Notes: generated from the letters alone by a model not told the origin. 28,713 bases of DNA from an uncultured Thermoplasmata archaeon (GCA_964399335.1 CAYNQI010000011.1:1-28713), one strand, 5' to 3'. Positions 2,717 to 28,713 are shown, counted from the stretch's first letter. Numbers and translations are program-made.

Positions 2717-3166
2717 TTATTTATGAGATTTCAACTCTTCAAAGACAGACTCAACGTTCTTACCAGTTTCGTCGATTATAGCTTGCCAACCTTCGTTATC
2801 CGGAGCTATGCCTAATAATCGGGCAGCTTTCATGATGGATATATGGTAGACTGTTTGTACCCCTGGTTCCTGTTCCCATATGACCATATTGCATGGAAAA
2901 AGGCCTCCGATCTTCATGGTTATATCCAGGGCTTTATCAGCAACTTTGGCATTGCAGGCACCCAATACGTAATACGGATCTTTATCGGCTCCTACTTTTT
3001 TGTTCAACACCTCAGAAGGTGAGAACTCAACAAGTATCCCGAAACCGTTATTTTCACAGACCTTTCGTACGTATTCAACAGCCTCTTCGTGTCCCATCTC
3101 TAACCTTGCTGTTTGTTCTCCGATATCGTCGGAATCCAATATATTAGGATCTATCTTCAGTATCAT
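2717..3166 (-). CDS. DUF302 family protein
   Basis: Motifs 'GFGILVEFSPSEVLNKK', 'YYVLGACN', 'GLFPCNMVIWE'. The start is placed at ATG 3166 because GGTGAT lies just upstream (the ORF track starts at 3178). Confidence 0.85.
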   Translation of the reverse strand: MILKIDPNILDSDDIGEQTARLEMGHEEAVEYVRKVCENNGFGILVEFSPSEVLNKKVGADKDPYYVLGACNAKVADKALDITMKIGGLFPCNMVIWEQEPGVQTVYHISIMKAARLLGIAPDNEGWQAIIDETGKNVESVFEELKSHK

Positions 3167-3171
3167 TCTGA

Positions 3172-3594
3172 TCACCATTCTACGTCAACGTTTACTCCAT
3201 CTGTCAAAGTGTTATCTACGGGACATCTATGCTGTACAGTTTCCATAAACTCTGTGATTTTTTCTTCAGGAATGCCTTCAATTTTTTTTACTTCCACTTT
3301 AATACTTTGTAGTCCAGATGGAACATCTGCTTTTCCCATTACTCCACGTGGATCTAGTTCTCCATGGATCTCTAGGCTGAAATCTTTTAGTTCGAACCCC
3401 ATCTGCTGAGCTACGATAGTCCCAGTAAAATCTAGACAGCCCACAATAGAAGCAAGTAGAATTTCAATCGGGTTTGGACCTTTGTTCGCACCTCCAATTT
3501 TTTCTGGCTCATCGATAGTTATAGTAAAATCTCTGATCTTTACTTTGGATTCGAACCCACTCTTTTTATCCAGAACGGCTTTATATTTATTCAT
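3172..3594 (-). CDS. OsmC/Ohr family protein
   Basis: 'IDEPEKIGGANKGPNPIEILLASIVGCL' and 'HRCPV' carry the two conserved Cys. ATG 3594 follows a GGTGGA SD; ATG 3609 is an alternative start. Confidence 0.9.
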   Translation of the reverse strand: MNKYKAVLDKKSGFESKVKIRDFTITIDEPEKIGGANKGPNPIEILLASIVGCLDFTGTIVAQQMGFELKDFSLEIHGELDPRGVMGKADVPSGLQSIKVEVKKIEGIPEEKITEFMETVQHRCPVDNTLTDGVNVDVEW

Positions 3595-4000: not shown

Positions 4001-5953
4001 ATGACAGAAGAAGAAAGTCATATCGAATCAAGAATGGAAGGTAAGGACATATACTCTCCTCCTGAGGAGTTCAAAAAACAGGCGAACGTAAATGATCCAG
4101 AAATATACAAGTACGCTGAAGAAAACTACGAGGAATTTTGGGCGGACCTTGCTGAAAGACTCGATTGGTATGAAAAGTGGGACGAAGTTTTGAAGTGGGA
4201 TCCACCTCATGCTGAATGGTTTGTTAATGGGAAATTAAATGCAGCATATAACTGTGTGGATAGACATGTTGAGAATGGAAAAGGCGATAAGACAGCTCTT
4301 ATCTGGGAAGGAGAACCGACAGACGAAACTAGGAAATATACTTTCTCTGAATTAAAAGATGAGGTTTCAAAATTCGCAAATGGTCTTAAGGAATTGGGAG
4401 TTGAAAAAGGAGATATCGTAACATTTTATCTTCCGATGATTCCTGAGCTTGCTATCGGTCTTCTCGCTTGTGCCAGGATCGGTGCACCTCACAGTGTCGT
4501 TTTCGGAGGTTTTTCTCCTTCAGCACTGAGAGAAAGGATGAATGATGCCGAATCAAAATTCTTAGTTACAGCTGATGGATATTACAGAAGAGGTAAAGTA
4601 ATCAATATGTGGGAGAATGCTGAAGAAGCGTTAGAAGGTGCATCACACGTCGAAAAAGTGATATCGGTGGAAAGGATCGGAAGAGATGACGTTGAATACA
4701 AAGAAGGAAGAGATGTTGTATATGATGAATTAGTTAAAGATCAATCCGTGGAATGTGAACCCAAAAAGATGGACGCAGAGGACATGCTTTTCTTGATGTA
4801 CACAAGCGGTACAACAGGTAAACCAAAGGGTGTTGTACATACTACTGGAGGATATTTAACAGGTACATCTGCAACCCATAACTATGTCTTCGACATCAAA
4901 GATGACGACATATACTGGTGTACAGCCGATATAGGTTGGATCACAGGCCACAGCTACATCGTTTATGGCCCATTAGCTAACGGAACAACCACATTGATGT
5001 ACGAGGGAGCACCGGATACACCCACAAAGGACAGGTTCTGGCAGATAATCGAAAAATATGAGGTGACTAAACTTTACACAGCTCCAACCGCTATAAGATT
5101 GTTCATGAAATGGGGTAGAGAGTATCCTGACAAACACGACCTATCGAGTTTGAAGGTTTTAGGTTCTGTAGGAGAACCGATCAATCCTAAAGCTTGGAAA
5201 TGGTATCACGAAGTCATAGGTGGAGGAGATTGCCCCATCGTTGATACTTGGTGGCAGACCGAAACCGGTATGATGCTGATCACACCTTTACCAGGGATCA
5301 CCGATTTGAAACCGGGTAGTGCAACACATCCATTCCCAGGTTTAAAAGCAGATATCTACGATGCCGCTGGAAACAGCCTTGAAGCTAACCAAGGTGGATA
5401 TTTGGTTATCAAAAGACCTTGGCCATCAATGTTAAGAACACTTTACAAGGAACCAGAAAGATATGTAGAAACATACTGGTCAGAGTATGAAAAAGGTATA
5501 TACTTCGCTGGAGACGGTGCTCGAATAGACGAAGATGGATATTTCTGGGTCGTAGGTAGGATAGATGATGTTTTGAACGTTGCAGGACACAGACTCAGCA
5601 CAATGGAGATGGAAAGTGCACTGGTTGATCACGAAGCAGTTGCTGAAGCTGCGGTAGTTGGAAAACCCGATGAAGTAAAAGGACAAGTTCCTATCGCTTA
5701 CGTGATCTTAGAATCCGGTCGTGAAGAATCTGATGAATTGGCAAGTGAATTGAGGGCACACGTCGGAAAGATCATAGGTCCGATAGGTAAACCAGCAGCA
5801 GTTAGATTCACAAGAGATCTACCAAAAACAAGATCTGGAAAGATAATGAGAAGGATCTTAAAGAAACTTGAAAAAGGAGAATCCGCTGGAGATACATCCA
5901 CTCTAAGAAACCCAGATATCGTAGAAGAGATCCGAGAGATGGTCAACGAGTAA
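4001..5953 (+). CDS. acs: Acetate--CoA ligase (AMP-forming acetyl-CoA synthetase)
   Basis: 'YTSGTTGKPKG', 'WCTADIGWITGHSY', 'DTWWQTETG', 'LPKTRSGKIMRR', 'GDTSTL'. AGGTG SD at 3990-3994 supports ATG 4001 over GTG 3992. Confidence 0.97.
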   Translation: MTEEESHIESRMEGKDIYSPPEEFKKQANVNDPEIYKYAEENYEEFWADLAERLDWYEKWDEVLKWDPPHAEWFVNGKLNAAYNCVDRHVENGKGDKTALIWEGEPTDETRKYTFSELKDEVSKFANGLKELGVEKGDIVTFYLPMIPELAIGLLACARIGAPHSVVFGGFSPSALRERMNDAESKFLVTADGYYRRGKVINMWENAEEALEGASHVEKVISVERIGRDDVEYKEGRDVVYDELVKDQSVECEPKKMDAEDMLFLMYTSGTTGKPKGVVHTTGGYLTGTSATHNYVFDIKDDDIYWCTADIGWITGHSYIVYGPLANGTTTLMYEGAPDTPTKDRFWQIIEKYEVTKLYTAPTAIRLFMKWGREYPDKHDLSSLKVLGSVGEPINPKAWKWYHEVIGGGDCPIVDTWWQTETGMMLITPLPGITDLKPGSATHPFPGLKADIYDAAGNSLEANQGGYLVIKRPWPSMLRTLYKEPERYVETYWSEYEKGIYFAGDGARIDEDGYFWVVGRIDDVLNVAGHRLSTMEMESALVDHEAVAEAAVVGKPDEVKGQVPIAYVILESGREESDELASELRAHVGKIIGPIGKPAAVRFTRDLPKTRSGKIMRRILKKLEKGESAGDTSTLRNPDIVEEIREMVNE

Positions 5954-7644: not shown

Positions 7645-8286
7645 TTACAATCTACTAGCAAAGGCCATTGTGCCCTTTACACTGTTCACACGGATCTTTA
7701 CTTCTTCACCCTTCGTGGTGCCTGGTACATATATGATATATTTTCCAACCTTAGCTACTCCGTCGCCTTTACTACCGATATCCTGTATTCGAACCTCGTA
7801 TATTCCACCTTCTTCTATACGTTCAGATTCAGCAGTTTTGTGACCTCTTTTCTTTTTACCTCTTACAGGCCTATGTGCACCACATGCATCACATTCTAGA
7901 ATGGTTATACGTCCGTCTTTAACTAGCCGAGTATCAGGGCGACCACATTCTGAACATAATACATATTTTTCAACATAACTTTCGATCTTATCTCTGATCT
8001 TTCTTGGATTGATTTTGCCTTTAAAAACTACTCTCCCATTTTCTCTATCTCCAGCAGTGGCTAATTCTCTTAGTAAATATTTGAGGAGTTTTTCAGGTTC
8101 TCTATTAAGTTGATTTGATATATCTGTAAAGTTTCTTAATATAGTTGTATTTCCTTCGACCATGGCATCTATTTCAGGTATTTCGAATCTTGAATGATTT
8201 GATATCTCATCGGGAAGGTCTTTTCTAGCTCTGCTTAATAAGTCATCGTAATCATTACCTTCCCCTTCTGGTTCATCTTCAGTCAT
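7645..8286 (-). CDS. eif2b: Translation initiation factor aIF2 subunit beta with C-terminal TRAM domain
   Basis: 'RFEIPEID...EGNTTILRNF', 'LLRELATAG', zinc ribbon CSECGRPDT...CDACGA, TRAM 'YEVRIQDIGSKGDGVAK'. ATG 8286 is preferred to TTG 8295; the start is uncertain. Confidence 0.95.
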   Translation of the reverse strand: MTEDEPEGEGNDYDDLLSRARKDLPDEISNHSRFEIPEIDAMVEGNTTILRNFTDISNQLNREPEKLLKYLLRELATAGDRENGRVVFKGKINPRKIRDKIESYVEKYVLCSECGRPDTRLVKDGRITILECDACGAHRPVRGKKKRGHKTAESERIEEGGIYEVRIQDIGSKGDGVAKVGKYIIYVPGTTKGEEVKIRVNSVKGTMAFASRL

Positions 8287-8406
8287 AGTATCCAAATGTC
8301 GTTAGGAACGTTTACTTTAAAAATGTATTGGTTAGAAGAAATCACCCGATATATTATCCAATGGTTTTGTGATAGATTTTTATACGATTGAATTATTGTT
8401 AATGAT

Positions 8407-10607: not shown

Positions 10608-11924
10608 TTATAGCTCTTCTATACTGCCTTCCTCTTCTCTAAGGTCTAGGACTCTTTTTGCCTTACCTACTGTTCTTGGTAGTGTTCCTGGTGGTAAGAG
10701 TTTCACCCTAGCCTTTATGTTCAGTATAGCCGTGATGTTTTCTGAAGTCCTCTCCAATAATTCTTCTTCGTCATACTTGTCCGAGTTATAGTATTCTCTG
10801 TCAACTTCCACTCTAACGAAAAGTTTGTCTAAAACATCTCTATCAACGATTATCTGGTAATGTTCACCGATGCCTTCAGTTTCTAAAAGAGCTTCTTCGA
10901 TCTGGCTTGGGAATACGTTCACACCACCAACGATCAGCATATCGTCGCTCCTACCTTCTATGCGCTTTATCTTAGGATGATACCTGCCACATTCACACTC
11001 TTCGTATTCAATAGTCGCGATATCCTTTGTTCTGTACCTCAATAACGGCATTGCCTCTCTGGAAAGCATGGTGAAAACCATCTCTCCTTTTTCTCCTTCT
11101 GGTAGTACTTCTCCCGTATTTGGGTCGATAGTTTCTACATAGAATTCGTCTCCCCATATATGAAGTCCATCTTGTTCAGGACATTCAACAGCTACTCCAG
11201 GACCATAAAGTTCGGACATGCCATAGACATCCTGGGCATTCAAACCGAATGAATTTTCGATACTTGTTCTAGCCTCTTCACTCCATGGTTCCGCACCGAA
11301 CATTCCGACTCTAAGATTGAAGTCCTGGCGGGGGTCAAATCCATGCTTTTGGGCAGCCTCTGCCAGATAGATTGCATACGATGGCGTACAAGCAAGAACT
11401 GTGGTCTGGAAGTCATTCATCATCTGGATCTGCTTTTTTGTGTTACCTGTTGATGTTGGTAGCACTGAGCATCCTAGTTCTTCAGCACCTTGATGGAAAC
11501 CTAAACCACCGGTGAACAATCCATATCCATATGCGTTCTGAACTATATCTGAGGATACAACTCCTGCTGTTGAATAACATCTAGCCATCAGATCGTTCCA
11601 AGTGTCCATGTCGTTACGAGTGTATGAAACAACCGTTGGTTTACCCGTAGTTCCACTGGAAGCATGGAATCGAACTACATCATCTTTATTCACTGCCAAG
11701 ATCCCATAGGGATAGTGGTCTCTTAGATCATCTTTTACAGTGAAAGGGACTTTATGTACATCCTCTAGACTGTTGATATCCTTTGGCGTTATGCCTTCGT
11801 TTTTGAATCTCCTCTTATACATGGGAACATTATCATAGGCATACTTCACCATCTTCAGCATCTTCTCTTCCTGTACCTTTCTGATCTCGTCCCTCTTCAT
11901 CAATTGAGCTTTTTTATTGAACAT
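10608..11924 (-). CDS. paaK: Phenylacetate--CoA ligase family protein
   Basis: 'VPFTVKDDLRDHYPYG', 'FHASSGTTGKPT', 'AYGYGLFTGGLG', 'YGMSELYGPG', 'LLRYRTKD', 'GRSDDMLIVGGVNVFPSQIE', 'LPRTVGKAKRV'. The true substrate cannot be determined from sequence. Confidence 0.92.
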   Translation of the reverse strand: MFNKKAQLMKRDEIRKVQEEKMLKMVKYAYDNVPMYKRRFKNEGITPKDINSLEDVHKVPFTVKDDLRDHYPYGILAVNKDDVVRFHASSGTTGKPTVVSYTRNDMDTWNDLMARCYSTAGVVSSDIVQNAYGYGLFTGGLGFHQGAEELGCSVLPTSTGNTKKQIQMMNDFQTTVLACTPSYAIYLAEAAQKHGFDPRQDFNLRVGMFGAEPWSEEARTSIENSFGLNAQDVYGMSELYGPGVAVECPEQDGLHIWGDEFYVETIDPNTGEVLPEGEKGEMVFTMLSREAMPLLRYRTKDIATIEYEECECGRYHPKIKRIEGRSDDMLIVGGVNVFPSQIEEALLETEGIGEHYQIIVDRDVLDKLFVRVEVDREYYNSDKYDEEELLERTSENITAILNIKARVKLLPPGTLPRTVGKAKRVLDLREEEGSIEEL

Positions 11925-11972
11925 ATATTTCCACCTTGAATTTTATCTTAGACCACTGAGTATAGAGAATGA

Positions 11973-11986
11973 TTATAAGTTTTTCG
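11973..11986 (-). promoter_or_regulatory. BRE-TATA promoter (CGAAAAACTTATAA) upstream of paaK
   Basis: BRE+TATA pattern about 50 nt upstream of ATG 11924, with an AGGTGG SD between them. Confidence 0.55.
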
Positions 11987-11996
11987 AAAAACTATA

Positions 11997-12476
11997 TCAC
12001 AATATACTTTCTATAAAATCAGTGATTTCGTCTAGGTGTTCTCTATCTTCGACCATTTTATCTTTTAAACTCAAAACTTCCTTAGGAACTCCAATTATTT
12101 CCTTCATATCGGTGAACGTTTTAGATTCTCCTCCTCCACCGTGTGTACAAAAAAATGCTATCTGATCAATTTTGTCTTTGTACTTTTCTAAGTATGTACG
12201 GATCGCTGGTGTCACTTTCCCTGCCCACACGGGTGTGCCAACAATTAACATATCAAAATTTTTAGGATCGTAAGAAATATCCCCTATCTCCGTTTTCTTT
12301 CTCATCATAGCATCTTTACCAGCTACGATGTATCCAGTCTTCCCATCTCGATCTTTTTTATCTATTACTTCCTCCGTTTTGACTTCTATGCCTCTTTCAG
12401 CCAATGAATCTTCGATATGTTCTGCTGCTTTTTTAGTCGTTCCTGTCCGTGAATAGTACGAGATGAGTATCTTCAT
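11997..12476 (-). CDS. Flavodoxin family protein
   Basis: FMN loop 'YYSRTGTTKKAA', 'IVGTPVWAG', 'AFFCTHGGGG'. ATG 12476 or 12482. Confidence 0.9.
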   Translation of the reverse strand: MKILISYYSRTGTTKKAAEHIEDSLAERGIEVKTEEVIDKKDRDGKTGYIVAGKDAMMRKKTEIGDISYDPKNFDMLIVGTPVWAGKVTPAIRTYLEKYKDKIDQIAFFCTHGGGGESKTFTDMKEIIGVPKEVLSLKDKMVEDREHLDEITDFIESIL

Positions 12477-12539
12477 GATCACTCTGATTTTACAACTATA
12501 ACAGGATATATCAATCTTATTATTTTATGAGAATCCATG

Positions 12540-14129
12540 TTAGAACCCCATGCTGACGAACAGAGCGGTCATCATACTAAGTATCAAAGTTAGTATGAAA
12601 ACTATCAACAGGTGCTTACGCAGGATTTCACTCTCCAATTTACCTCCTTTTCCTATGGTAGCCACTGCATTTGTGATCTTGGAAGGAGTTATCGCAGATG
12701 CTACACCTCCTGCAACACCGTGACTTGCGTAAACTGTCATGAATTGTTTATCGGTTAGTCCGATCTGTTCTGTCACCTGTCTTTGTATACCGAAGAATAA
12801 TACGTTACTGGCAGTTTCACTACCTCCCACGATGGCACCGAATATACCTAAACTTGCCGCCACAAAAATGTATCCGGGTCCAAATATATCACCTAGTACG
12901 ATCCCAACGATGTAGTTCATATTGTATTGTTGAGCTATTAACTGTAAAGACTCGCCTCCCAGTTCGTGACCGCTAAAAGCCATAATGTATGCGATTGAAA
13001 AGAACAAACTGTAAGCTATGAACGGACCCCATATCCTTTGAGACCAGGTTTTTAAAACAGTTCTTGTTTGTTCCTTAGTGGGTTTAAGAAGATAAAATGA
13101 GGCAAAGGCAGCCACAGCGATCCAAAAATAGACCTGAGCAAATACGTTGAATTGGACTGTTTCGTATGCGATTATCCAGCTAGTGAAACCAGGATCAATA
13201 GATCTCAAAAATATGTTTATCGAGGGCACACTAGCAATAGATGCAAGTATGATCAGAAGAAGCCATGGAGATAGTGCCCTGAGTAGCTTTTTCTTATCCA
13301 TTGGTTCATGTTCTAATTTTATACCATTTCTCTTCCTTTCCCAAACGAAATAAGCATAGAGTACTATCATTGAAAGTATACCTGCAATAACACCTAGGAT
13401 CATGATAGGTGCTCTTATGACGACAAGTATTATTGATGAAACACCTATGACTAGACCTGAAAGTACTGCAGGTACTATTCCCTTTTTCAAAGATTTTAAA
13501 CCACCGATTATCCAAAGCATAGCACATGAGATAACAGTAGCTATCACCGGTAAAAATAGGGCAATCCTATATGCAAAGTCGTAGCCGAATTCCAAAGCTG
13601 TCATCCCAAGTTGGTCTGCGAATAGATCCGCAGGAAGAGTTATCGGTATTGAAAGTAGTGCGAAACTCGTACTAGCATTGTACCCTAATACCGATATCGC
13701 AACTGCTGAAGAGGGACCGAAACCCATGGCTATCAACAATGGCGGAAATAAAGCAGGTGTGACAACTCCTAAAGATGTCACAAAGGTTCCGAAACCTATC
13801 CCGATGAATAGTGCCTGTTCTTCACGTGTATGGGCTACCCTCTTGATAGCTAATGAAATTGTTTCTAATGCCCCTACTTCTTTCATTAAAAATATTAGAA
13901 GCATTGTAAATACAATCGCAATGCTGATACCGAATGATTGAAAGAAACCGTAGATGGTAGCAGCTGTAGCTATATATATACTGGTTTCGAAAAACAAAAC
14001 TGCTATGATAAAACAGATGATCAATCCAAATATCGCCATCTCATGTGTCCTTCTTTTAAATCCGATTATACCTATGAATACGATCAACAAGGGAAGCAGC
14101 ACCAATAAAAATTTTACTCCTAGGGGCAT
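12540..14129 (-). CDS. L-lactate permease (LctP) family carboxylate transporter
   Basis: Polytopic; 'GIGFGTFVTSLG', 'LGAIVGGSETASNVLF'-like C-terminal motif ('FGAIVGGSETASNVLFFGIQ'), 'AITPSKI'. The start is placed at ATG 14129 because TTTATAAA (14159-14166) abuts ATG 14159. Confidence 0.88.
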   Translation of the reverse strand: MPLGVKFLLVLLPLLIVFIGIIGFKRRTHEMAIFGLIICFIIAVLFFETSIYIATAATIYGFFQSFGISIAIVFTMLLIFLMKEVGALETISLAIKRVAHTREEQALFIGIGFGTFVTSLGVVTPALFPPLLIAMGFGPSSAVAISVLGYNASTSFALLSIPITLPADLFADQLGMTALEFGYDFAYRIALFLPVIATVISCAMLWIIGGLKSLKKGIVPAVLSGLVIGVSSIILVVIRAPIMILGVIAGILSMIVLYAYFVWERKRNGIKLEHEPMDKKKLLRALSPWLLLIILASIASVPSINIFLRSIDPGFTSWIIAYETVQFNVFAQVYFWIAVAAFASFYLLKPTKEQTRTVLKTWSQRIWGPFIAYSLFFSIAYIMAFSGHELGGESLQLIAQQYNMNYIVGIVLGDIFGPGYIFVAASLGIFGAIVGGSETASNVLFFGIQRQVTEQIGLTDKQFMTVYASHGVAGGVASAITPSKITNAVATIGKGGKLESEILRKHLLIVFILTLILSMMTALFVSMGF

Positions 14130-14213
14130 ATCTATCGCCGTTGGGATAAGTAGTGTCATTTATAAATATTATCGAGTGTTTTTGTTCCTTTTTTACAATT
14201 GATAACAAAATTC

Positions 14214-14228
14214 CGAAAGTCATATTAA
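14214..14228 (+). promoter_or_regulatory. BRE-TATA promoter (CGAAAGTCATATTAA) of the acd operon, probably leaderless
   Basis: The TATA-like element ends about 24 nt before ATG 14252, and there is no SD before that ATG. Confidence 0.45.
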
Positions 14229-14251
14229 GGTCCTGTTTTACTCCGCTATCG

Positions 14252-16387
14252 ATGGCTGAAAAAGAAAAAGATCTCATCCCTCTCTTCGAGCCTGATTCGA
14301 TAGCTATAGTTGGTGCATCCAGTAAAAAAGGGAAGGTCGGGAATATTTTACTTTCGAACATCGTTAACTCGGGATATCAGGGCAATGTTTATCCTGTAAA
14401 TCCTAAGGGTGGAGAGATATACGGAAAAGAAGTTTACGGATCCATAGAAGAGCTACCTGAGGGTATAGATCTTGGAATAATTGTGATACCTGCTAAATAC
14501 GTGAGAGAGGCTATCCAAAAATTAGGTGAAAAAGGCATACAACATACGATAGTCATCACATCAGGATTTTCAGAGATCGGTAATACCGAGGAAGAAAACC
14601 TCATAGTTGAAGAGGCGGGCAAACACGGTATGAGGATACTTGGTCCAAATGTGTTCGGTATTTATTCTTCAAAAGTTGATCTAAACGCAACTTTTGGTCC
14701 ATCAAAGGTCGCAGGTGGAGAGATCGCGTTGATTTCCCAGAGTGGTGCACTAGGTATTGCCATGATAGGTAAAACAGCCATGCAGTACTTGGGTCTTTCA
14801 GCTATCGTGAGTGTCGGTAATAAATCAGATATCGATGATATGGACCTTATCGATTATTTTTCAGATGATGATGAAAGCAAAGTTATCATGATATACATGG
14901 AGGGATTACAAAACGGCCGCGAATTTATCGAAAAGGTAGAAGATGATATCCCTCCGGAAAAAACTGTTATCGTTATAAAAGCGGGTCGTTCTGAAAAAGG
15001 AGCTACTGCAGTCGCTTCACATACAGGTTCCTTAGCTGGTTCAGACAGAGTTTTCAGTTCAGCTTTCAGGCAAGCAGGTATCTTAAGAGCAGATACCATA
15101 AACGAGGCTTTCAACTGGTCAAGGGCCTTCTCTAACACACCTTTACCAAAAAATGATAAAGTGGTAGTCGTGACTAATGGAGGAGGCATAGGTGTTCTCA
15201 GTGCAGACGCAGGTGAGAAGTATGGTGTGGAGTTATTAGACGACCAGACTTTCCTCAAGGAAACTTTCCAAGATACCATACCTCCCTTTGGATCAACTAA
15301 GAACCCCATCGATATAACCGGCCAAGCCGGGAAGGAAGAATATGAAAAAGCCTTGAGAAAGGCCTTTGAAAGTGACGAGATCGGAGCGGTGGTCGGGTTG
15401 TACTGTGAAACAGGTACCACCGATGACGACGAAGTCGCAAAAGCTATAAAAGAAATCCATGACGAATATGGTGACGAAAAAACAGCGGTTTATACCTTCA
15501 CTGGAGGGGAAGAAGCCTATGATTGTGTACAATGGCTTAGAAAGAATAAGATATCTGCTTATACAGAAACCGATGAAGCCATGTCGTCTTTAGGTGCATT
15601 ATACAAACGCAAAAGATACCTTGAGAGGATGGAAGAGATGGAAGAAATAGAAGAACCGAATATAGATGTTAAGGGGATAAAGAAAGTTATCGATGAAGTA
15701 GCTAAAGAAGGTCGGATCAATCTTCTTGAGGATGAAGCTAGGACGGTATTAGATCTAGCAGGTATACCCATGGCTAAAGGTAAAGTTGTTAATACACTTG
15801 AAGGTGCAGTTGAAGTTGCTGAAGAGATCGGTTATCCTGTTGTGCTTAAAGTTGTTTCTGAAGATATCATCCATAAATCAGATGCCGGTGGATTGGCATT
15901 GAATTTAGAAAATGAAAAAGAGGTTGTGGATGCTTACCAGGCTATATACTCTAACTGTAAAAACAAATATCCTGACGCCCATATACGTGGTATCTCGGTT
16001 GCAGAGATGCTGAAAGGTGGAGAAGAAACGATAGTAGGGGGAACTCGAGACAACTCATTCGGACCTATGGTCATGTTTGGGTTAGGAGGCGTTTATGTAG
16101 AGATCTTAGAAGACGTCGTCTTCCGAGTAGCTCCCGTATCTAAAAGGGAAGCAAGGAGGATGATAGGAGAGATCAACGCATTCCCTGTTTTGGTGGGGGC
16201 GAGAGGTCAAACACGAAAAGATCTAGATGCTTTGGCAGATATTATATATCGGATGTCCTTTTTGATGAATGAAGTGGACGAGATATCAGAAATAGACTTA
16301 AATCCGATCAAGGCTTTCGATCAAGGTAAAGGTGCAAAGTCTGTAGATGTTGCTGTATCAATTAAAAGAAAGGTGATAGAAAAATGA
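14252..16387 (+). CDS. acd: ADP-forming acyl-CoA synthetase, fused alpha-beta (acetate--CoA ligase, ACD)
   Basis: 'LFEPDSIAIVGAS', 'RILGPNVFG', 'ISQSGALG', 'VSVGNKSD', phospho-His motif 'ASHTGSLAG' (His codon 15020-15022), ATP-grasp 'GYPVVLKVVSEDIIHKSDAGG', 'FGPMVMFGLGG', 'EIDLNP'. The 33 codons before ATG 14252 overlap the divergent promoter and are unlikely to be coding. Confidence 0.95.
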   Translation: MAEKEKDLIPLFEPDSIAIVGASSKKGKVGNILLSNIVNSGYQGNVYPVNPKGGEIYGKEVYGSIEELPEGIDLGIIVIPAKYVREAIQKLGEKGIQHTIVITSGFSEIGNTEEENLIVEEAGKHGMRILGPNVFGIYSSKVDLNATFGPSKVAGGEIALISQSGALGIAMIGKTAMQYLGLSAIVSVGNKSDIDDMDLIDYFSDDDESKVIMIYMEGLQNGREFIEKVEDDIPPEKTVIVIKAGRSEKGATAVASHTGSLAGSDRVFSSAFRQAGILRADTINEAFNWSRAFSNTPLPKNDKVVVVTNGGGIGVLSADAGEKYGVELLDDQTFLKETFQDTIPPFGSTKNPIDITGQAGKEEYEKALRKAFESDEIGAVVGLYCETGTTDDDEVAKAIKEIHDEYGDEKTAVYTFTGGEEAYDCVQWLRKNKISAYTETDEAMSSLGALYKRKRYLERMEEMEEIEEPNIDVKGIKKVIDEVAKEGRINLLEDEARTVLDLAGIPMAKGKVVNTLEGAVEVAEEIGYPVVLKVVSEDIIHKSDAGGLALNLENEKEVVDAYQAIYSNCKNKYPDAHIRGISVAEMLKGGEETIVGGTRDNSFGPMVMFGLGGVYVEILEDVVFRVAPVSKREARRMIGEINAFPVLVGARGQTRKDLDALADIIYRMSFLMNEVDEISEIDLNPIKAFDQGKGAKSVDVAVSIKRKVIEK

Positions 16388-17415
16388 AAAATCTCATAAT
16401 AGCTTCTACTAGACCCGATGCGGGTAAAACAACTGTAGGTTTGGCTATAGCGCTTTTAAATGAAGGTACTTTCAATTATTTGAAACCCTTTGGAGATAGA
16501 CCGATTTATAAGAAAAAAAGACTCATCGATTATGACGCAAAACTTTTCAAAAATATATTGAACTTAGAAGAGGATTATGAGAAGTTTTGTGTGGGTTTTG
16601 ATCACTCAAAAATCAAATATGCCTATGACAAAAAGACTATCGAAAATAAGATCAAAGATAGGATAGAAGAGATGAGGGAAAGCAAGGAAAGTGTTATCAT
16701 CGAAACTGGTGACGAATGGAGTGTTGGCTCATCTATAAATCTAGATCCTGTCTCTTTATACGAGTACACAGATTCAGAGATAATCATCGTTGCAACGGGA
16801 AACCGAACTAGTATGATAGATGATCTTCACACAGTGTCTAAATATTTCCAGGCTCAAGACATACCTGTTAAAGGTGTGGTTTTGAACAAGGTGGAATCGG
16901 TTGAAGATATACAGAATTTTGCAGTAGATGAAATAGAATCACTTGGCATGGATGTTATAGGCATCATACCCGAGATAAAGGACCTCTCTTTAACCAGAGT
17001 GAGTTTCATCAACGATATGCTGTTCGGTAAAGTTGTTGCCGGTGAAAATGGTTTGAACAACCTCGTTGAAAACGTTTTCGTAGGTGCCATGAGCGCCGAA
17101 GAGATAGTTAGAAACCCACATTACCAAAAAAGAAGGAAGCTGGTCATTACAGGTGGAGACAGGTCAGATGTTGTTTTAGCTTCTTTAGATGAAGAAACAT
17201 CCGGGGTGGTTTTGACCAATGATATAATACCGCCGAGCAATATCATATCTAGAGCAGATAGAGCAGGAATTCCTTTAATATCAGTTCCATTAGATACCTA
17301 TGAAGCTGCTAGAAGGATCGAACGAATGGACAGGATCACTACCATCGAAGATGATTTTAAGATAAAAAGGATCAAAGAAGACATCACCCCTAGGATAGAA
17401 ATTGATTTAGAGTGA
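16384..17415 (+). CDS. BioD-like P-loop + DRTGG domain protein (N-terminal half of long phosphotransacetylases; no Pta catalytic domain)
   Basis: 'IASTRPDAGKTTVGLAI', 'YLKPFG', 'VIIET', 'GVVLNKV', 'VGAMSAE', 'LVITGGDRSDV', 'IPLISVPLDTYEAA'. ATGA overlap with the acd stop; AGGTGAT SD at 16371-16377. Confidence 0.88.
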   Translation: MKNLIIASTRPDAGKTTVGLAIALLNEGTFNYLKPFGDRPIYKKKRLIDYDAKLFKNILNLEEDYEKFCVGFDHSKIKYAYDKKTIENKIKDRIEEMRESKESVIIETGDEWSVGSSINLDPVSLYEYTDSEIIIVATGNRTSMIDDLHTVSKYFQAQDIPVKGVVLNKVESVEDIQNFAVDEIESLGMDVIGIIPEIKDLSLTRVSFINDMLFGKVVAGENGLNNLVENVFVGAMSAEEIVRNPHYQKRRKLVITGGDRSDVVLASLDEETSGVVLTNDIIPPSNIISRADRAGIPLISVPLDTYEAARRIERMDRITTIEDDFKIKRIKEDITPRIEIDLE

Positions 17416-17463
17416 CATAGAAAGAGTTAAGTAAACTTTCAGAAGTCTTTTTGATGATAGAGT

Positions 17464-19311
17464 GTGAAATACATGCCATATGATGTAGATTATGTAGAGG
17501 CTAGAGATGCTTTAAATAAGATAGGGAGAGGTGATAGGGTATTCGTAGGATCTGGAGCTGCAGAACCTCAATACTTAGTTAAGGAATTGACCGAATTGGC
17601 TTCGGAATTTACTGATACTGAAATATTCCATATCCAGACCCTTGGTGTTGCCCCCTATACGGAGGAAAAATTCGAGGATAGTTTTAGGCATAATGCATTC
17701 TTTGTCGATGACAATACTAGGGATGCCGTTGCAGAAGGGAGAGCGGATTACACACCTATCTTCATGAGGGATATACCAAAACTATTCAAAACAGGCAGGG
17801 TTCCACTGGACGCATCGTTGATACAGGTATCTCCTCCCGATGAGCACGGATGGATGAGTTTAGGTGTGGCAGTCGATATCATAAAATCTGCTATTGAAAA
17901 CTCTAAGATGGTCATAGCTCAGGTAAATCCCAAGATGCCTAGGGTCCATGGTGATTGTTTCATCCATGTAGATGAAGTGGATTATCTAGTTCATTACGAG
18001 GAAGACCTGTTGGAATTCGATCCAGTAGTTTCTGGAAAAACCGCTGAGGAGATAGCGGGAAATGTGAGTAGACTGATAGAAAATGGTGCTACAATCCAGA
18101 TAGGATACGGAGCCGTTCCCAATGCTATATTGGAACATCTAGAGGTCAAGGAAGATTTAGGCATCCATACAGAGATGCTTTCTGAAGAACTCGCTAATCT
18201 GATCGAAAGGGGGATCGTTACTAATCAAAAAAAGAGTATCCATAAAGGGAAAAGTATAGCCTCTTTTTTGATGGGTACTCGAGATCTTTATGATTTTGTA
18301 GACGACAATCCTGGGATAGAACTCAGACCAACAGATTACACAAATGACCCCTTCGTCATAGCCAAGAATTACAAGATGACCGCGGTGAATACCGCACTTC
18401 AGGTGGATCTAACTGGGCAGGTGTGTGCTGATTCTTTGGGATACAGCTTCTACAGCGGGATCGGTGGACACGCTGATTTTATGAGAGGTGCAGGTTATGC
18501 TGAGGACGGTAAATCTATCATCGCTTTATCATCTACTGCTCAGGATGGAAAGGTTTCTAGGATCGTTCCATCCCTAAATGAAGGCGCTGGTGTGGTTACA
18601 ACTAGAGGGGATGTCGAATATGTAGTGACTGAATACGGTGTAGCTTATTTGAAAGGTAAGAACATACGCCAGAGAGCCATGGAATTGATAAATATTGCAC
18701 ACCCCAAATTCAGGGAAGAACTACTTAGAAAGGCGAAAGAACATCATCTCGTGTATCAGGACCAGGTCCTTGTCTTAGATGAAGGAGGAAGGTATCCAGA
18801 TGAACTCGAAACTATCAAAACGATAAATGATAAAGAATACATATTCAGGCCTATGAAGCCTACTGATGACGAACTGCTGAAAGACTTATTCTACTCTTTA
18901 TCCGATGAAAGCAGGTACAAACGTTTCATGAGCACCCGTAGGGATCTACATCACGATAGGAGGCAAGAATTCGTACAGATCAACTATAATAAGGAGATGG
19001 CCATAGTGGTAGTCGATCCCGAGATCGAAGGGCCTGATAGGATGGTAGGCGAGGCGGACTACCGTATCAAGGAAGGGCAGAACGTTGCTGAAATTTCAGT
19101 TATGGTCAGGGACGAGTACCAGAGTATGGGTATCGGGTCGGCATTGGTAGAATATCTGACCATGATAGCTAAGAATCAAGGTCTATACGGATTCACAGCT
19201 GAAGTTCTAGCAGATAACAAGAAGATGCTCAAAGTGTTCGAAAAGATGGGCTATGATATAGAAAAGAAGAGAAAATACGGTGAATATGAGTTACGTATGA
19301 GGTTTGTTTAA
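17464..19311 (+). CDS. Family I CoA-transferase/acetyl-CoA hydrolase fused to a C-terminal Pat-type GNAT
   Basis: N-terminal part: 'GDRVFVGSGAAEP', 'GRADYTPI', 'QVSPPDEHGWMSLG', 'TIQIGYGAVPNA', 'LGIHTEM' (catalytic Glu), 'QVDLTGQVCADS', 'SGIGGHADF', 'TEYGVA', 'IAHPKFREEL'. C-terminal GNAT: 'LSDESRYKRF', 'INYNKEMAIV', 'AEISVMVRDEYQSMGIG', 'AEVLADNKKML..FEKMGY'. ATG 17473 is an alternative start. Confidence 0.92.
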   Translation: MKYMPYDVDYVEARDALNKIGRGDRVFVGSGAAEPQYLVKELTELASEFTDTEIFHIQTLGVAPYTEEKFEDSFRHNAFFVDDNTRDAVAEGRADYTPIFMRDIPKLFKTGRVPLDASLIQVSPPDEHGWMSLGVAVDIIKSAIENSKMVIAQVNPKMPRVHGDCFIHVDEVDYLVHYEEDLLEFDPVVSGKTAEEIAGNVSRLIENGATIQIGYGAVPNAILEHLEVKEDLGIHTEMLSEELANLIERGIVTNQKKSIHKGKSIASFLMGTRDLYDFVDDNPGIELRPTDYTNDPFVIAKNYKMTAVNTALQVDLTGQVCADSLGYSFYSGIGGHADFMRGAGYAEDGKSIIALSSTAQDGKVSRIVPSLNEGAGVVTTRGDVEYVVTEYGVAYLKGKNIRQRAMELINIAHPKFREELLRKAKEHHLVYQDQVLVLDEGGRYPDELETIKTINDKEYIFRPMKPTDDELLKDLFYSLSDESRYKRFMSTRRDLHHDRRQEFVQINYNKEMAIVVVDPEIEGPDRMVGEADYRIKEGQNVAEISVMVRDEYQSMGIGSALVEYLTMIAKNQGLYGFTAEVLADNKKMLKVFEKMGYDIEKKRKYGEYELRMRFV

Positions 19312-19323
19312 GGTGAGTTCTAG

Positions 19324-20058
19324 ATGTCAAAAGAGGTTTATGATGGGCAATGGGATATAGATTACACACCGGTTCAAGAGATAATCGAAGAAGCAAAGGA
19401 TCGGAAAAGGTCAGTGCTTTTGGAAAGTGAGGCTAGAGAGATACTTGAATTAGCAGATATACCTTTTGCACGCGGTAAGGTCGTTCACTGCATCGATGAA
19501 GGTGTGAAAGTCGCTGAGGAGATAGGATATCCAGTTGTTCTAAAGGTCGTATCCGAAGATATCCTACACAAGATGGATGTAGGAGGAGTAAGGACCGGTA
19601 TCGAGGATGAAAATGAATTTGTAGATGCATACGAATCCATATGCACTCAGGTGAGAAATAAAAAACCAGATGCTAAAGTTCAAGGGATATCCATTGCAGA
19701 ACATATTAGTGGAGGCGAGGAAGTTATTTTAGGTGGGATGACGGATCCTTCCTTCGGTCCAGTTGTGATGTTCGGCATGGGTGGGATTTACGTTGAACTT
19801 CTGAAAGATGTGGTTTTTCGAGTGGCTCCTATAAGCACACAAGAAGCATGTGAGATGATCCGTGAAATCCAATCTTTCTCTGTATTGATCGGGGCAAGAG
19901 GTAAGAAAAGAAAAGATGTAAAAGCAATAGCTGAGATGATATCTAAGCTCAGCGAATTGATATATTTTGTCAACGGTATCCAGGATATAGATCTTAATCC
20001 TGTCGTTGCTTTAGAAGATGGTGCAGTGGCTTTGGATGTTGCTGTCAACATAAAGTGA
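19324..20058 (+). CDS. Stand-alone ACD beta (ATP-grasp) subunit
   Basis: Colinear with the C-terminal third of the 14252-16387 protein; 'GYPVVLKVVSEDILHKMDVGG', 'FGPVVMFGMGG', 'DIDLNP'; AGGTGA SD at 19311-19316. Confidence 0.9.
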   Translation: MSKEVYDGQWDIDYTPVQEIIEEAKDRKRSVLLESEAREILELADIPFARGKVVHCIDEGVKVAEEIGYPVVLKVVSEDILHKMDVGGVRTGIEDENEFVDAYESICTQVRNKKPDAKVQGISIAEHISGGEEVILGGMTDPSFGPVVMFGMGGIYVELLKDVVFRVAPISTQEACEMIREIQSFSVLIGARGKKRKDVKAIAEMISKLSELIYFVNGIQDIDLNPVVALEDGAVALDVAVNIK

Positions 20059-24667: not shown

Positions 24668-27600
24668 CTATCCCCATATATCCTCCTCGTCCGGGGTTGA
24701 TTGTTCTTCGGTTATTTCACCTTCAAGTACTTCTTCATCGTTTTCGTTATTAGATTCTTCGTATGTTCCTTCTTCGTCAAGTACTTCTTCATCGTTTTCG
24801 TTATTAGATTCTTCGTATGTTCCTTCTTCGTCAAGTACTTCTTCATCGTTTTCGTTATTAGATTCTTCGTATGTTCCTTCTTCATCTTTTAGATCACTTT
24901 CAGTTTCTGATCTGTCTTCAGGTAAATCCTCCTTCTCATCTGAGGATTCCTCCTTGTGTTTAGAATCTATTTTATCTTGCTCAATTCCTACCTTGGAGTA
25001 TATTGTATACAGTACTGCTAACAGAGCGATTATGATCAGAATCAAGAAGAATAGATTCGTCATGTAGATCGGCGTTGGATATTCCTCGAATTCAACCGAT
25101 TCTTCACTGGTATCGGTTAGAACTATTTCCTGATCTTCTTGTAAATCCACATTTGTTAACAGATAAGTTGTTCTGAATGAAGCACTTATATGGTAATCAT
25201 CCCTAGCCGGAAGCCTGAAAACATATTCTCCATCAGTTGAATATCCAGTCCATACCTGCTCTTCCGTTGTGACCTTTAATTGTACGTCATCTAGATCTTC
25301 CCCGTTCTTATCCACTGTGCTGATTGTTAAATAGTATACGTCAGATTCTATATCAAGTGACCAGCTATTTTCTTCTGAAGTTACTTCATGTTGACTTTCA
25401 TGAACTGTAGTTCTCAACCATTTTACTTCGATATCCCAATTCTCAGCGGGTATTCTTATCTCAACTTCGCCCTGAGCATCCGTGTAACCCGAAAAGTATT
25501 GTTTAAGAGTATCTTCATATGTAACTCTAACCGGTGCAGAACTTAATGGAACATCTCTATCGTCCCTTACTGATAAATCAAGGTAATAGATGTCTGAATC
25601 TGCCGTTATGTTGGTGTCTTCGGTAAGTTGTTCTGTTTCTGTATGAACGACTACATTCTTCCAGTGGACCGTAAATGTTTGTTCACCTCTTGGTAATAGG
25701 AATTGAATATGCCCTTCGGTATCACTGATCCTGTCAGAGATTATGTTCCTATCTGATGGGAGTTCAGAATGTCTAACGATGACTTTAGAGTTTTCTACTG
25801 AGATATCTCTTTCATCTACAACATAAAAGTTAACATAATATACCTCCGCATCTATAGTTTCTGGGGCTTCCGAAAGTATGTCTTCATCAACCGTCATATC
25901 TTCGTCGTAAACAACGACACTTCGCCATTCAACTAAGATCGAGATCTCTCCAGCCTCACCAACAGGTGTAGGAACTCGGATGCTTATAGTACCGTTTTCA
26001 CCAGTCACACTCGAATCAAAATTCGTTCCTTCAGTGTCAAAACTGGCTCTTGCGTTGTTCAATGGATTTCCTCTAGAATCGACTATCTGGAAGGAAACGT
26101 GATAGATATCCTCTACATGTATCACCATCTCTTCGGAAGCGTCGAATACTACTGGGCTGTCATAAACCATTACACCGTTCCAGTGTAGAGTTACCTGATT
26201 TGTTGCTCCGGGTATCCTTGAGAATGATCTTCCGTCTTCTGAAGTTAATTCTGTGTGTAATAGTGTATCACCGTGTGAAACTCTAAGTCTGCCTCCACCA
26301 ACTGGGACATCAAAATCATCCTGGACCAGGAAGTCTATATGATAAACGTCCGTGATAGCAGTCATCGACATGTCCTGATTTAGATCTATTTCATCTTGAT
26401 AAACGTCTACGTTCTTCCAACTGATGGATATATCTAGCTCCACACCAGGCAATCTCATCTCTGGTACGGAACCGTCCGTTAAAGACGTGTCTTGTTCTAT
26501 CAAACTGTTTCCTATGTAGAACTCTACTCTCGCATTTTCAAGAGGTTCTCCTTGGTCGTCAACGATGTTCATATCCAAGTAGTAAACCTCGCATAGAATC
26601 TTGTAATCCTCACTAGAATCAATAACCATATCGTCATTATAGATCTCAGCACCTTTCCATCGGACTTCCATGTTCAACATAGTCCCAGGTAATCTCATAG
26701 AAACGTTTCCATCTTCTCCTGTTGTATCACTGGTAAGTGTTCCTGCTGTATGGTGAGATACAGTGATCCTTGCATCGGATATGATTTCATCCCTACTGTC
26801 TATGGTAAATAGTTCGACATGATAAACAGAGCATTCCAATTCTATACTTTGGTCAGTTCCAGTTATATCTACGTCCGTCACGTCGACTTCTATACCTCTC
26901 CAGGTAGCTCTTATCCTGTGAAGACCTCTCGGTAATCTCATCACAAGTCTACCTGTTTGGTCAGTATTACCAGTATTCGCGATGGTATCTGTTTCAAGGT
27001 TCCGGGCCACTAATCGTGTATTTTCTAGGTCATATCCGAGATCATCTACCGTTTGAAGTTCAACATAATATATCTCTAGTTCAACATCTAAAGACCTATT
27101 GCTTTCGAATTGTTCTGCATAGAGTTCTTTAACCTCCACACCTCTCCATTGGAAATTCAAGTCATAAGTGAAATCTCCTCCAGTTCCGGGCAGTCTGACT
27201 GTTAAATTTCCATTTATATCAGTCAATTTAGAGTCCGCTATCCTTCGTGTATCGTTGAACCTTATAGATACGTGGACCTCCGGAACAGGTACTTCTTCGG
27301 TATCCATCGTGTGGATGTTGAGATAGTATACGTCCGTATAGATCGTCAATTCTACACTTTCGTTCAAATAATGCTCTGTAGAATCAACTTCTCTACCAAG
27401 CCATTCAGTTCTCAAAGAATAATCTCCTACTGGGGATTGAGGTAAATGGACGTAACCATCAGTATCCGTTATCTCGCGGATCAATGTGCTATTAGGATGA
27501 CTGATAAAGATGTTTGCATTCGGTACCGGTTCTCCGGCTACATCGACGACCTTATAGGATGTATCATATACGGAACAATTCAAAGTGATAGCATCTTCAT

Positions 27601-28713
27601 AGGGCACATTATCGCTCACTTGGTACGTGGTCTCGTTTACCAATACATCTTCCCAGTAAACTCTGAAGATATATTCGCCTTCTGTGATACTGATATTCGT
27701 GACCCCTTCGTCATTTGTTACGTTACTAGTTACCAATTCCTCTTCTGAAGAGTAAGCTGCAACTTCTGCGTATTCTAGGACGATGTCCATCGAATCGACG
27801 GTTTGGAAGTGTATGAAAAATCTTTCCGCACCGATCCAGAAATCTTTTTCAAAGGATTCAAGATGTCCTCCGTAGGTTTCATCGCCTGGGTTATCAGGAT
27901 ATCTGTAGTTGTAACCGGTGTTATCTACTGTTGAGACAATGGCGGTGTATTCTCCTTCAGCCTGTCCACCGTAGTCCCATTCATAGGTAAAATTACTTCT
28001 GTAAGACGTATCGTTCCCTGTAACTCTTGTCATCGGCTCTCTATAGAATACGGTGCCATCAGGCCCCTCTACTGTCAAATTTACTCTGCTTATATCATAC
28101 CCACCGAAAGGATTCGTGATAGATGTGTTGAAGTGTATGGTAGTTTCATCTGCTCCAAGGCGGAAATCGTAGGATTCCTCGAATTCTGAGTTAAGGATCG
28201 TGAAAGTATCCACGTCGATGTAGTCTTCTGTTTCCACTTCTATTCTGCTTGGATACTCCGAGTCGCCGAAAGCGACCCTTTTTACGAAGTTATCACTACT
28301 CTCGATGACGAATTCTACTCTCAATGATGATTCAGGTGATATCGTATATTCATCGATATCCGTGGATACAGAATATTCGTTGAATATCGTTCTAGTGTTG
28401 TCATAGCTTACAAACCCTTGATCGATGAAATCCTCTGTACCATCTGGTTGTACTTCATAGAGGTTCATCGTAAGATCTAAAGTATTAGTGTGTCCGTCAG
28501 CTTCTGCAATGTCGATCCACATATTGATAGTGGAAGTTCCGTTAAGGGTAAATTCTCCGGCAAAAGGTGGATTTAGATACCAGTCATGAGTTATGGTAGA
28601 ACTGTACTCAAAATCTGTTATATGCTGATCTTCACCCATGGTAGTATTCATGGTCATTACATCAACATTCTCGTTGACCGTTCCAGTTTCATTATGCAGG
28701 TACATGGTTTTGG
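24668..28713 (-). CDS. Large acidic cell-surface protein with 11 carboxypeptidase-regulatory/Cna-B-like repeats, C-terminal TM anchor and acidic tail (probably 5'-truncated)
   Basis: Single ORF of at least 1345 aa. The frame stays open to the window edge (AAA ACC before ATG 28705) and no signal peptide is visible. Repeats of ~80-88 aa; TM 'NLFFLILIIIALLAVLYTIYS'. The fold assignment is inferred. Confidence 0.85.
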   Translation of the reverse strand, partial: KTMYLHNETGTVNENVDVMTMNTTMGEDQHITDFEYSSTITHDWYLNPPFAGEFTLNGTSTINMWIDIAEADGHTNTLDLTMNLYEVQPDGTEDFIDQGFVSYDNTRTIFNEYSVSTDIDEYTISPESSLRVEFVIESSDNFVKRVAFGDSEYPSRIEVETEDYIDVDTFTILNSEFEESYDFRLGADETTIHFNTSITNPFGGYDISRVNLTVEGPDGTVFYREPMTRVTGNDTSYRSNFTYEWDYGGQAEGEYTAIVSTVDNTGYNYRYPDNPGDETYGGHLESFEKDFWIGAERFFIHFQTVDSMDIVLEYAEVAAYSSEEELVTSNVTNDEGVTNISITEGEYIFRVYWEDVLVNETTYQVSDNVPYEDAITLNCSVYDTSYKVVDVAGEPVPNANIFISHPNSTLIREITDTDGYVHLPQSPVGDYSLRTEWLGREVDSTEHYLNESVELTIYTDVYYLNIHTMDTEEVPVPEVHVSIRFNDTRRIADSKLTDINGNLTVRLPGTGGDFTYDLNFQWRGVEVKELYAEQFESNRSLDVELEIYYVELQTVDDLGYDLENTRLVARNLETDTIANTGNTDQTGRLVMRLPRGLHRIRATWRGIEVDVTDVDITGTDQSIELECSVYHVELFTIDSRDEIISDARITVSHHTAGTLTSDTTGEDGNVSMRLPGTMLNMEVRWKGAEIYNDDMVIDSSEDYKILCEVYYLDMNIVDDQGEPLENARVEFYIGNSLIEQDTSLTDGSVPEMRLPGVELDISISWKNVDVYQDEIDLNQDMSMTAITDVYHIDFLVQDDFDVPVGGGRLRVSHGDTLLHTELTSEDGRSFSRIPGATNQVTLHWNGVMVYDSPVVFDASEEMVIHVEDIYHVSFQIVDSRGNPLNNARASFDTEGTNFDSSVTGENGTISIRVPTPVGEAGEISILVEWRSVVVYDEDMTVDEDILSEAPETIDAEVYYVNFYVVDERDISVENSKVIVRHSELPSDRNIISDRISDTEGHIQFLLPRGEQTFTVHWKNVVVHTETEQLTEDTNITADSDIYYLDLSVRDDRDVPLSSAPVRVTYEDTLKQYFSGYTDAQGEVEIRIPAENWDIEVKWLRTTVHESQHEVTSEENSWSLDIESDVYYLTISTVDKNGEDLDDVQLKVTTEEQVWTGYSTDGEYVFRLPARDDYHISASFRTTYLLTNVDLQEDQEIVLTDTSEESVEFEEYPTPIYMTNLFFLILIIIALLAVLYTIYSKVGIEQDKIDSKHKEESSDEKEDLPEDRSETESDLKDEEGTYEESNNENDEEVLDEEGTYEESNNENDEEVLDEEGTYEESNNENDEEVLEGEITEEQSTPDEEDIWG
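24723..24886. repeat. Tandem repeat, 54-bp unit x3, encoding (DEEGTYEESNNENDEEVL)3 on the - strand
   Basis: Units 24723-24776, 24777-24830 and 24831-24884 are identical except for G>A at 24884. Confidence 0.97.
25082..27823 (-). repeat. Eleven diverged protein-level repeats, consensus about (V/I)Y(Y/H)hxhxhhDxxgxph...TxxxG...RLP...hxhxW
   Basis: Units begin RFFIHF, VYDTSY, VYYLNI, IYYVEL, VYHVEL, VYYLDM, VYHIDF, IYHVSF, VYYVNF, IYYLDL, VYYLTI. No DNA-level identity is apparent by eye. Confidence 0.85.

Follow-up and report, generated by a model that had tools for sequence, protein, structure and literature searches.

Four closely spaced genes on a contig from an uncultured Thermoplasmata archaeon raise the question of whether enzymes of acyl-CoA metabolism and a protein acetyltransferase work there as one system and, if so, which of the four genes belong to it. 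The contig (GCA_964399335.1, CAYNQI010000011.1:1-28713; "the window" below means this whole stretch of 28,713 nucleotides) carries the genes at positions 14252-20058, and a sequence-only reading had taken all four for one complex that couples acyl-CoA:acetate CoA transfer to ATP synthesis and acetylates enzymes according to CoA-ester or energy state. By sequence comparison, three of them form a conserved cassette of anaerobic archaea and bacteria that is apparently unstudied: a fused alpha-beta ADP(NDP)-forming acyl-CoA synthetase (ACD; g1), a stand-alone protein with a BioD-like P-loop domain and a DRTGG domain (g2), and a fusion of a CoA-transferase with a GNAT acetyltransferase (g3). We put at roughly one in two the probability that this cassette is an acetate/acyl-CoA node operon in which the CoA-transferase and the ACD together make ATP and the GNAT acts on AMP-forming synthetases, with the fourth gene, a free ACD beta subunit (g4), as a local addition.

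Distribution and organization of the cassette

The g3 fusion is present in at least 597 species-representative genomes, with carriers in Thermoplasmatota, Hodarchaeota, Methanothrix, Thermotogota, Bipolaricaulota, Nitrospirota, Desulfobacterota, Chloroflexota, Spirochaetota and others, and archaeal and bacterial versions share ~50-55% identity (mean column identity 72%). We surveyed the 80 best g3 loci, 57 of which were informative and 23 too short to judge. The full tight cassette, with few-base gaps or 4-bp overlaps between genes, was found in 29 of the 80, as g3-g1-g2 in 27 and in the window's own order in two (loci L007 and L008); at a further 12, g3 has an ACD gene, a DRTGG gene or both no more than 10 kb away, two of these being frameshifted canonical cassettes. 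Because g1-, g2- and g3-type genes recur together in many phyla, their clustering exceeds chance by far. Pairwise identities of the three cassette proteins are correlated (rho 0.70-0.79, with p-values inflated by kinship), as expected from joint inheritance or transfer of the three genes. Within a set of 40 relatives, the window's family accounts for 23 other genomes, 22 of them with g3, and other families in the class for 16, of which 5 have it; the phyletic profiles of g3 and g2 agree in 37 of the 40. The recurrence that the sequence-only reading expected of all four genes thus holds for g1, g2 and g3, which are translationally coupled across archaeal and bacterial phyla, and fails for g4, which recurs within the family only.

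In the window, the four open reading frames lie tightly spaced on the plus strand of a Candidatus Saliniplasma (Thermoplasmatota) metagenome-assembled genome (MAG), and Pfam agrees with the domains that had been named for them. The ACD gene (14252-16387, +, 711 aa) has its stop codon overlapped by 4 bp (ATGA) by g2 (16384-17415, +, 343 aa), which is preceded by an AGGTGA Shine-Dalgarno site. The g3 gene follows with its CoA-transferase part at 17473-18789 (+, residues ~1-439) and its GNAT part at 18790-19311 (+, residues ~440-612), and after a 12-bp gap and another AGGTGA site comes g4 (19324-20058, +, 244 aa). These spacings and both strong ribosome-binding sites are as first described, except that the g2-g3 gap is 57 bp and not 48 bp: we prefer the ATG at 17473 (612 aa) to the GTG at 17464 as the start of g3, since all database orthologues are 612 aa long and begin M-[PS]-Y-D-V. 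The AT-rich 92-bp intergenic region at 14160-14251, between g1 and the start of a divergent lactate permease gene (14159, −), contains a TATA-like TTATAAATA, read from the sequence, and is presumed to hold the operon's promoter. Between g4 and the next gene (20130) lies a T-rich spacer in which that gene has a TATA-like TTTATATA of its own, and g4 is therefore most likely the last gene of the operon. The nearest database proteins come from MAGs of Candidatus Saliniplasma and Natronoplasma, Thermoplasmatota of hypersaline lakes known from MAGs only (PMC11332174); the host assembly itself (G000), 80% complete, comprises 212 contigs totaling 1.57 Mb.

Some individual loci deserve separate mention. 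A contig labeled Aenigmatarchaeota (L007, JBKHKA010000025.1) carries the four-gene operon in the same order with 83% (g3) and 71% (g1) identity to the window, which suggests that the contig was mis-binned or the operon recently transferred. Two tandem g2 copies follow the ACD gene in a Spirochaetes MAG (L015:14173-16553), two tandem g3 paralogues lie at L074:1023-5728, and a CoA-transferase gene without GNAT stands directly upstream of g3 at L064:8599-11839. Three Nitrospirota loci (L018, L029 and L030) have a distant ACD gene (~36% identity) and then a DRTGG gene (~30% identity) near g3, divergent from it in L018 and L029 and 7 kb off in L030; pairing of ACD and DRTGG genes therefore extends beyond the three-gene cassette.

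The ADP-forming synthetase and its DRTGG partner

The g1 product contains the Pfam domains CoA_binding_2, Succ_CoA_lig, Ligase_CoA_2 and ATP-grasp_5 (E-values 1e-72 to 1e-18), and its best solved relatives are the ADP-forming 4-hydroxybutyrate-CoA ligase of N. maritimus (8wzu, E 1e-155) and ACD1 of Ca. Korarchaeum (4xyl). Like these and the Pyrococcus ACD, it has the full domain set and both phospho-histidines, His257 in ASHTGSLAG of the alpha part and His541 in HKSD of the beta domain, which are invariant in the aligned cassette ACDs (sets of 32 and 21). It differs from them in its gene neighborhood, with a DRTGG gene always behind it and g3 usually in front, and in scoring below every substrate-defined NCBIfam equivalog cut-off (acetate, 4-hydroxybutyrate, 3-hydroxypropionate; 606 bits against 1300, 502 against 567, 496 against 1200 and 417 against 1300). 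With both histidines kept, g1 looks like a catalytically competent ACD, as the sequence-only reading had it, unlike the ACD-like domains of type I/II Pat, which are inactive and lack the catalytic His (PMC8556138) and bind acetyl-CoA as regulators (PMC8556138, PMC12184503).

The g2 product consists of AAA_26 (BioD-like) and DRTGG domains without PTA_PTB, and so corresponds to the N-terminal half of class II Pta minus its catalytic domain. Its AlphaFold2 (AF2) model (pLDDT 89) matches dethiobiotin synthetase over residues ~1-205 (TMt 0.66-0.69) and the DRTGG protein AF1212 over the rest (TMt 0.79). Nucleotide binding is plausible, because a GKT P-loop and the motifs KP.G.R..Y.KKRL and IT.GDR.D are conserved across 32 orthologues. 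In cassette loci g2 always stands after the ACD gene. The same two domains occur in the same order in the N-terminal region of E. coli class II Pta, in DVU3031 and in Archaeoglobus AF1212 (2ioj), and g2, like the class II Pta region, sits beside an enzyme that turns acetyl-CoA into acetate; unlike class II Pta, it has no PTA_PTB domain, keeps the GKT P-loop and has an ACD rather than Pta as partner. DVU3031, a stand-alone AAA+DRTGG protein encoded in the lactate/acetate operon of Desulfovibrio vulgaris, is required for growth on L-lactate and is described as uncharacterised (PMC4481167, PMC10102598). We also considered whether g2 could be half of a split Pta, and rejected this because no PTA_PTB domain was found in the host genome (80% complete). 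Uncharacterised BioD-like/DRTGG proteins thereby gain a consistent partner in the ACD, which could explain the role of the N-terminal half in long Pta.

A CoA-transferase fused to a Pat-type acetyltransferase

Pfam assigns AcetylCoA_hydro, AcetylCoA_hyd_C and a GNAT domain to g3. Its N-terminal part, a predicted AbfT/Cat2-type family I CoA-transferase, matches 4-hydroxybutyrate CoA-transferases in the PDB with E 3.5e-129, within a range of 1e-109 to 1e-129 for full-length matches to 4-hydroxybutyrate and butyryl-CoA:acetate CoA-transferases (AbfT 3gk7, Cat2). Glu234, in HTEM, aligns with Glu238 of Clostridium aminobutyricum AbfT (3gk7), which we take to be the catalytic glutamate; it is invariant in 14 diverse members, and HTE is conserved across phyla. 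The GGQ-type motif of these enzymes is likewise kept across phyla as GIGG(Q/H)ADF, with GGH in the window's archaeal family. Besides this GGH, g3 is set apart from AbfT and Cat2 by its C-terminal GNAT and by missing the cut-off of TIGR03948 (butyryl-CoA:acetate CoA-transferase; 276 bits against 674.8). Enzymes of 4-hydroxybutyrate are the best matches of both g1 and the CoA-transferase half of g3, which may serve as a weak lead on the substrate.

By alignment, the GNAT of g3 is Pat-type, in line with the kind first proposed for it. Protein lysine acetyltransferases make up all five of its best solved relatives (PatZ 9isq/9it0, the GNAT of S. lividans PatA 4nxy, M. smegmatis and M. tuberculosis Pat 4orf/4ava, and Sulfolobus Pat 3f8k), and it matches the NCBIfam model of mycobacterial Pat at 4e-22. 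Glu540 aligns with Glu809 of E. coli PatZ (E in 13 of 14 members, D in one) and QSMGIG, the QxxGxG loop at residues 550-555, with the PatZ phosphate loop, the roles of these PatZ residues being those given in PMC12184503. The alignment to PatZ begins in the linker ahead of the GNAT and covers the substrate gating motif V746-T763 named in that paper (PMC12184503). The residues that the sequence-only reading had judged intact (His257 of g1 in its SHTG motif, and the HTEM Glu234, Glu540 and QxxGxG loop of g3) are all in place. The CoA-transferase half is as conserved as the GNAT half; an AF2 model of g3 from a 14-row alignment was of low quality (pLDDT 64, pTM 0.53).

The fusion shares with type I/II Pat (E. 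coli PatZ/YfiQ 9isq/9it0, Salmonella Pat, S. lividans PatA 4nxy) the GNAT subtype, the catalytic Glu, the QxxGxG loop, the gating-motif stretch, a large CoA-ester-binding domain ahead of the GNAT and an ACD-family sequence, here next door. It differs in that the GNAT is fused to a CoA-transferase, whereas the ACD is separate and keeps its catalytic histidines. A CoA-transferase is not among the described regulatory domains of Pat (ACD-like, cAMP-, ACT- and NADP-binding), and none of the five GNAT architectures in reviews and a 2025 PatZ structure paper includes one (PMC8556138, PMC12184503). Bacillus AcuABC and E. coli YdiF with YiaC likewise tie a GNAT, by operon or pathway, to acetate/acyl-CoA enzymes and deacetylases, but their parts are separate, their GNATs are of other subtypes, and they include no ACD or DRTGG protein. 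Our literature searches for the fusion or the cassette returned nothing specific and no paper describing this GNAT architecture, which agrees with the earlier statement that no characterised system with this composition was known.

The fourth gene

The g4 product contains ATP-grasp_5 only, with a conserved His82, and as such resembles a normal beta subunit of ADP-forming synthetases; it is 55% identical to g1 residues 470-708. A maximum-likelihood tree built from beta domains nests the g4 orthologues (a group of 9 rows with support 98/98) within the family's own g1 beta clade (25 rows, 100/97), on branches longer than those of the g1 beta domains. On this tree g4 is therefore a family-specific duplicate of the g1 beta domain, and an origin as an ancient independent beta subunit is ruled out. 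No free beta gene was found in cassettes outside the window's archaeal family. Within the family the order g1-g2-g3-g4 holds in ~10 of 14 fetched loci; L094 and L100 lack g4, and g3 stands alone in L095 and L101. What had been described as a four-gene system is in our analysis one of three genes.

The distribution of g4 suggests where its product may work. The only ATP-grasp_5 domains in the host genome are those of g1 and g4, and an alpha-only ACD with the motif ASHTASLAG is encoded at C14:17180-18586 with no beta gene beside it. Loci L098, L103 and L104 have an alpha-only ACD gene divergently upstream of g1. Orthology between these genes and that on C14 was rejected, as the proteins are only ~30-33% identical; several alpha-only paralogues therefore exist. 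In 10 of 11 family genomes, a free beta gene and alpha-only ACDs occur or are lacking together: both are present in G000, G001, G003, G007, G013 (with three alpha-only genes) and G023, G011 has an alpha-only ACD with its own adjacent beta and no g4, and G009, G012 and G017 have neither. We conclude that g4 is probably a shared beta subunit of alpha-only ACDs encoded elsewhere and not part of the cassette. In Thermococcales, one beta subunit is reported to serve several alpha ACD subunits. Two g4 copies (L097:6865-7503 and L102:6960-7646) are extremely diverged, with end branches of 3.2 and 2.0 substitutions per site, which suggests relaxed selection or a new role.

A model for the acetate node and its alternatives

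In the reading we favor, the CoA-transferase half of g3 would move CoA from other acyl-CoA esters onto acetate to give acetyl-CoA, and the ACD would convert acetyl-CoA, ADP and phosphate into acetate and ATP, so that together they would turn acyl-CoA, ADP and phosphate into the free acid and ATP via an acetate/acetyl-CoA shuttle. The g2 protein may modulate the ACD in the way the homologous domain modulates Pta. The GNAT would acetylate the active-site lysine of AMP-forming acyl-CoA synthetases, its activity being set by the CoA-ester state bound or produced by its own CoA-transferase domain. Acetate activation would then be off during acetate excretion, such that the two do not run together, and Sir2 and HDAC-type deacetylases of the host could reverse the acetyl mark. 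The g4 product, for its part, would supply an ATP-grasp subunit to the alpha-only ACD paralogues.

A candidate target lies in the window itself: an AMP-forming acetyl-CoA synthetase (Acs) gene at 4001-5953 (+), with ACAS_N, AMP-binding and AMP-binding_C domains, a score above the TIGR02188 cut-off and the lysine motif PKTRSGK. Besides ACD and DRTGG genes, the only recurrent neighbor of g3 is a gene for an AMP-forming acyl-CoA synthetase, found at 9 of 84 loci and with PxxxxGK in 8 of the 9. The host genome encodes one Sir2-type and three HDAC-type deacetylases. The sole Sir2-type gene (contig C58, 3718-4239, −) adjoins a succinyl-CoA synthetase alpha gene (3136-3543) within C58:1636-5644 of G000. 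In three genomes of the same genus (G001, G002 and G003) Acs is on the same contig as the operon, ~10 kb or less away; in other genera the two are on separate contigs.

Several observations weigh against this model. Neither an ACD nor a DRTGG gene is nearby in 16 of the 57 informative loci, about a quarter, despite at least 3.3 kb on both sides, and g3 can therefore work alone. An Acs gene is near g3 in only about one locus in ten, which leaves that link weak, and Acs is near-universal in the relatives with or without g3 and hence uninformative as a phyletic test. Neither g1 nor the CoA-transferase half of g3 can be assigned a substrate, because both miss the NCBIfam equivalog cut-offs. No longer protein containing g2 was found at E <= 1e-10, so that no fusion argues for binding, although this is weak evidence. 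Finally, the one family genome that breaks the correspondence described for g4, G005 (92% complete), has an alpha-only ACD and no free beta gene.

We also weighed other explanations. The conserved CoA-transferase half, with its catalytic Glu, is probably an enzyme and not only a sensor, and it might make a non-acetyl acyl-CoA (lactyl-, propionyl-, butyryl- or 4-hydroxybutyryl-CoA) from the free acid and acetyl-CoA, which the fused GNAT would write onto lysines while the ACD recycles or supplies acetyl-CoA. An unfused precedent exists in E. coli, where YdiF makes lactyl-CoA that the GNAT YiaC uses for lysine lactylation (PMC9636275), and both the lactate permease gene divergently upstream of g1 and the importance of the DRTGG protein DVU3031 for growth on L-lactate (PMC10102598) would fit. 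However, the permease gene is not conserved beside the operon within the genus (it is present in G002, locus L093, and was not found in the fetched G001 stretch, L091), Pat-type GNATs studied to date use mainly acetyl-CoA, and the g3 model is too poor to give the domain arrangement; we regard such a route as rather unlikely. We hold in similarly low expectation its extension, in which g3 would be a self-feeding lysine acylation writer that marks enzymes with the very organic acid being handled (as lactyl, propionyl, butyryl or hydroxybutyryl groups) and the ACD and g2 would balance acetyl-CoA/acetate and ATP. The GNAT could instead act on the ACD and/or g2, or be controlled by them in trans, so that the cassette would regulate itself and not Acs. 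Its composition of ACD plus GNAT mirrors type I/II Pat (PMC8556138, PMC12184503), the canonical order sets the GNAT end of g3 against the ACD start, often with a 4-bp overlap, and the invariant Y.KKRL motif of g2 is rich in lysine; yet the ACD retains both catalytic histidines, unlike the regulatory domain of Pat, g3 also occurs without a nearby ACD, and its GNAT already has a large N-terminal domain in cis, all of which makes self-regulation decidedly unlikely. With no higher expectation than for the self-feeding writer, the cassette could also represent an ancestral arrangement that gave rise to the ACD-GNAT fusions of Pat.

A purely metabolic operon, in which the GNAT half would acetylate a small molecule such as an amine or amino acid without any protein regulation, strikes us as highly doubtful. 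GNATs are versatile, and an Atlas search with the GNAT part of g3, with CoA-transferase clusters set aside, returned only unannotated stand-alone GNATs; set against this are the uniformly protein-modifying solved relatives of the domain, the PatZ alignment that runs from the linker through the gating-motif stretch (V746-T763, PMC12184503), and the finding that no small-molecule pathway genes recur beside g3. As for a single machine built from all four products, spare beta subunit included, the tight one-strand spacing, the strong Shine-Dalgarno site before g4 and the persistence of the four-gene order in most fetched family loci (~10 of 14) are what it would lead one to expect. But g4 is absent from every canonical cassette outside the family and from two loci within it (L094 and L100), a beta domain is already present in g1, the evolution of g4 is faster than that of this domain, with strong divergence in L097 and L102, and the free beta gene tracks alpha-only ACDs instead, so that of the readings considered we find this one the hardest to credit.

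No metabolic switch of bacteria is better understood than the reversible acetylation of lysines in acyl-CoA synthetases, and the acetate node sets how much energy fermenters, syntrophs and acetoclastic methanogens gain; for the latter reason a control layer at this node is worth a bench test. If the acetate-node model holds, the cassette would add a sixth, widespread writer architecture to the five known, carried by uncultured anaerobes in the hundreds, among them Asgard archaea, Methanothrix, syntrophs, Thermotogota and Bipolaricaulota. In this architecture the sensing domain would still resemble a working CoA-transferase, and the acetyltransferase would be wired to the enzyme that makes ATP from acetyl-CoA. 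New in our analysis are the explanation of the fourth gene and the profiles across the family.

Neighboring genes in the window

The lactate permease gene (12540-14159, −) is followed upstream of the operon by genes for a PaaK-like AMP-forming ligase (AMP-binding and AMP-binding_C_2) and a flavodoxin (10608-12482, −). This ligase/flavodoxin pair stays beside the operon in L008, L091, L092, L099, L100 and L102, whereas the permease gene does not, and a link of the operon to lactate was rejected because the permease is not conserved alongside it within the genus. Elsewhere in the window, a 319-aa protein (1164-2123, −) has two tandem GNAT domains in a layout resembling the "type V" bacterial acetyltransferases, and a 216-aa frame (7645-8295, −) combines an eIF-5_eIF-2B (translation initiation factor 2 beta) domain with a C-terminal TRAM domain. 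At the far end, a surface-type protein of more than 1345 aa (24668-28711, −), open at the window end, carries CarboxypepD_reg, Big_1 and macroglobulin-like repeats.

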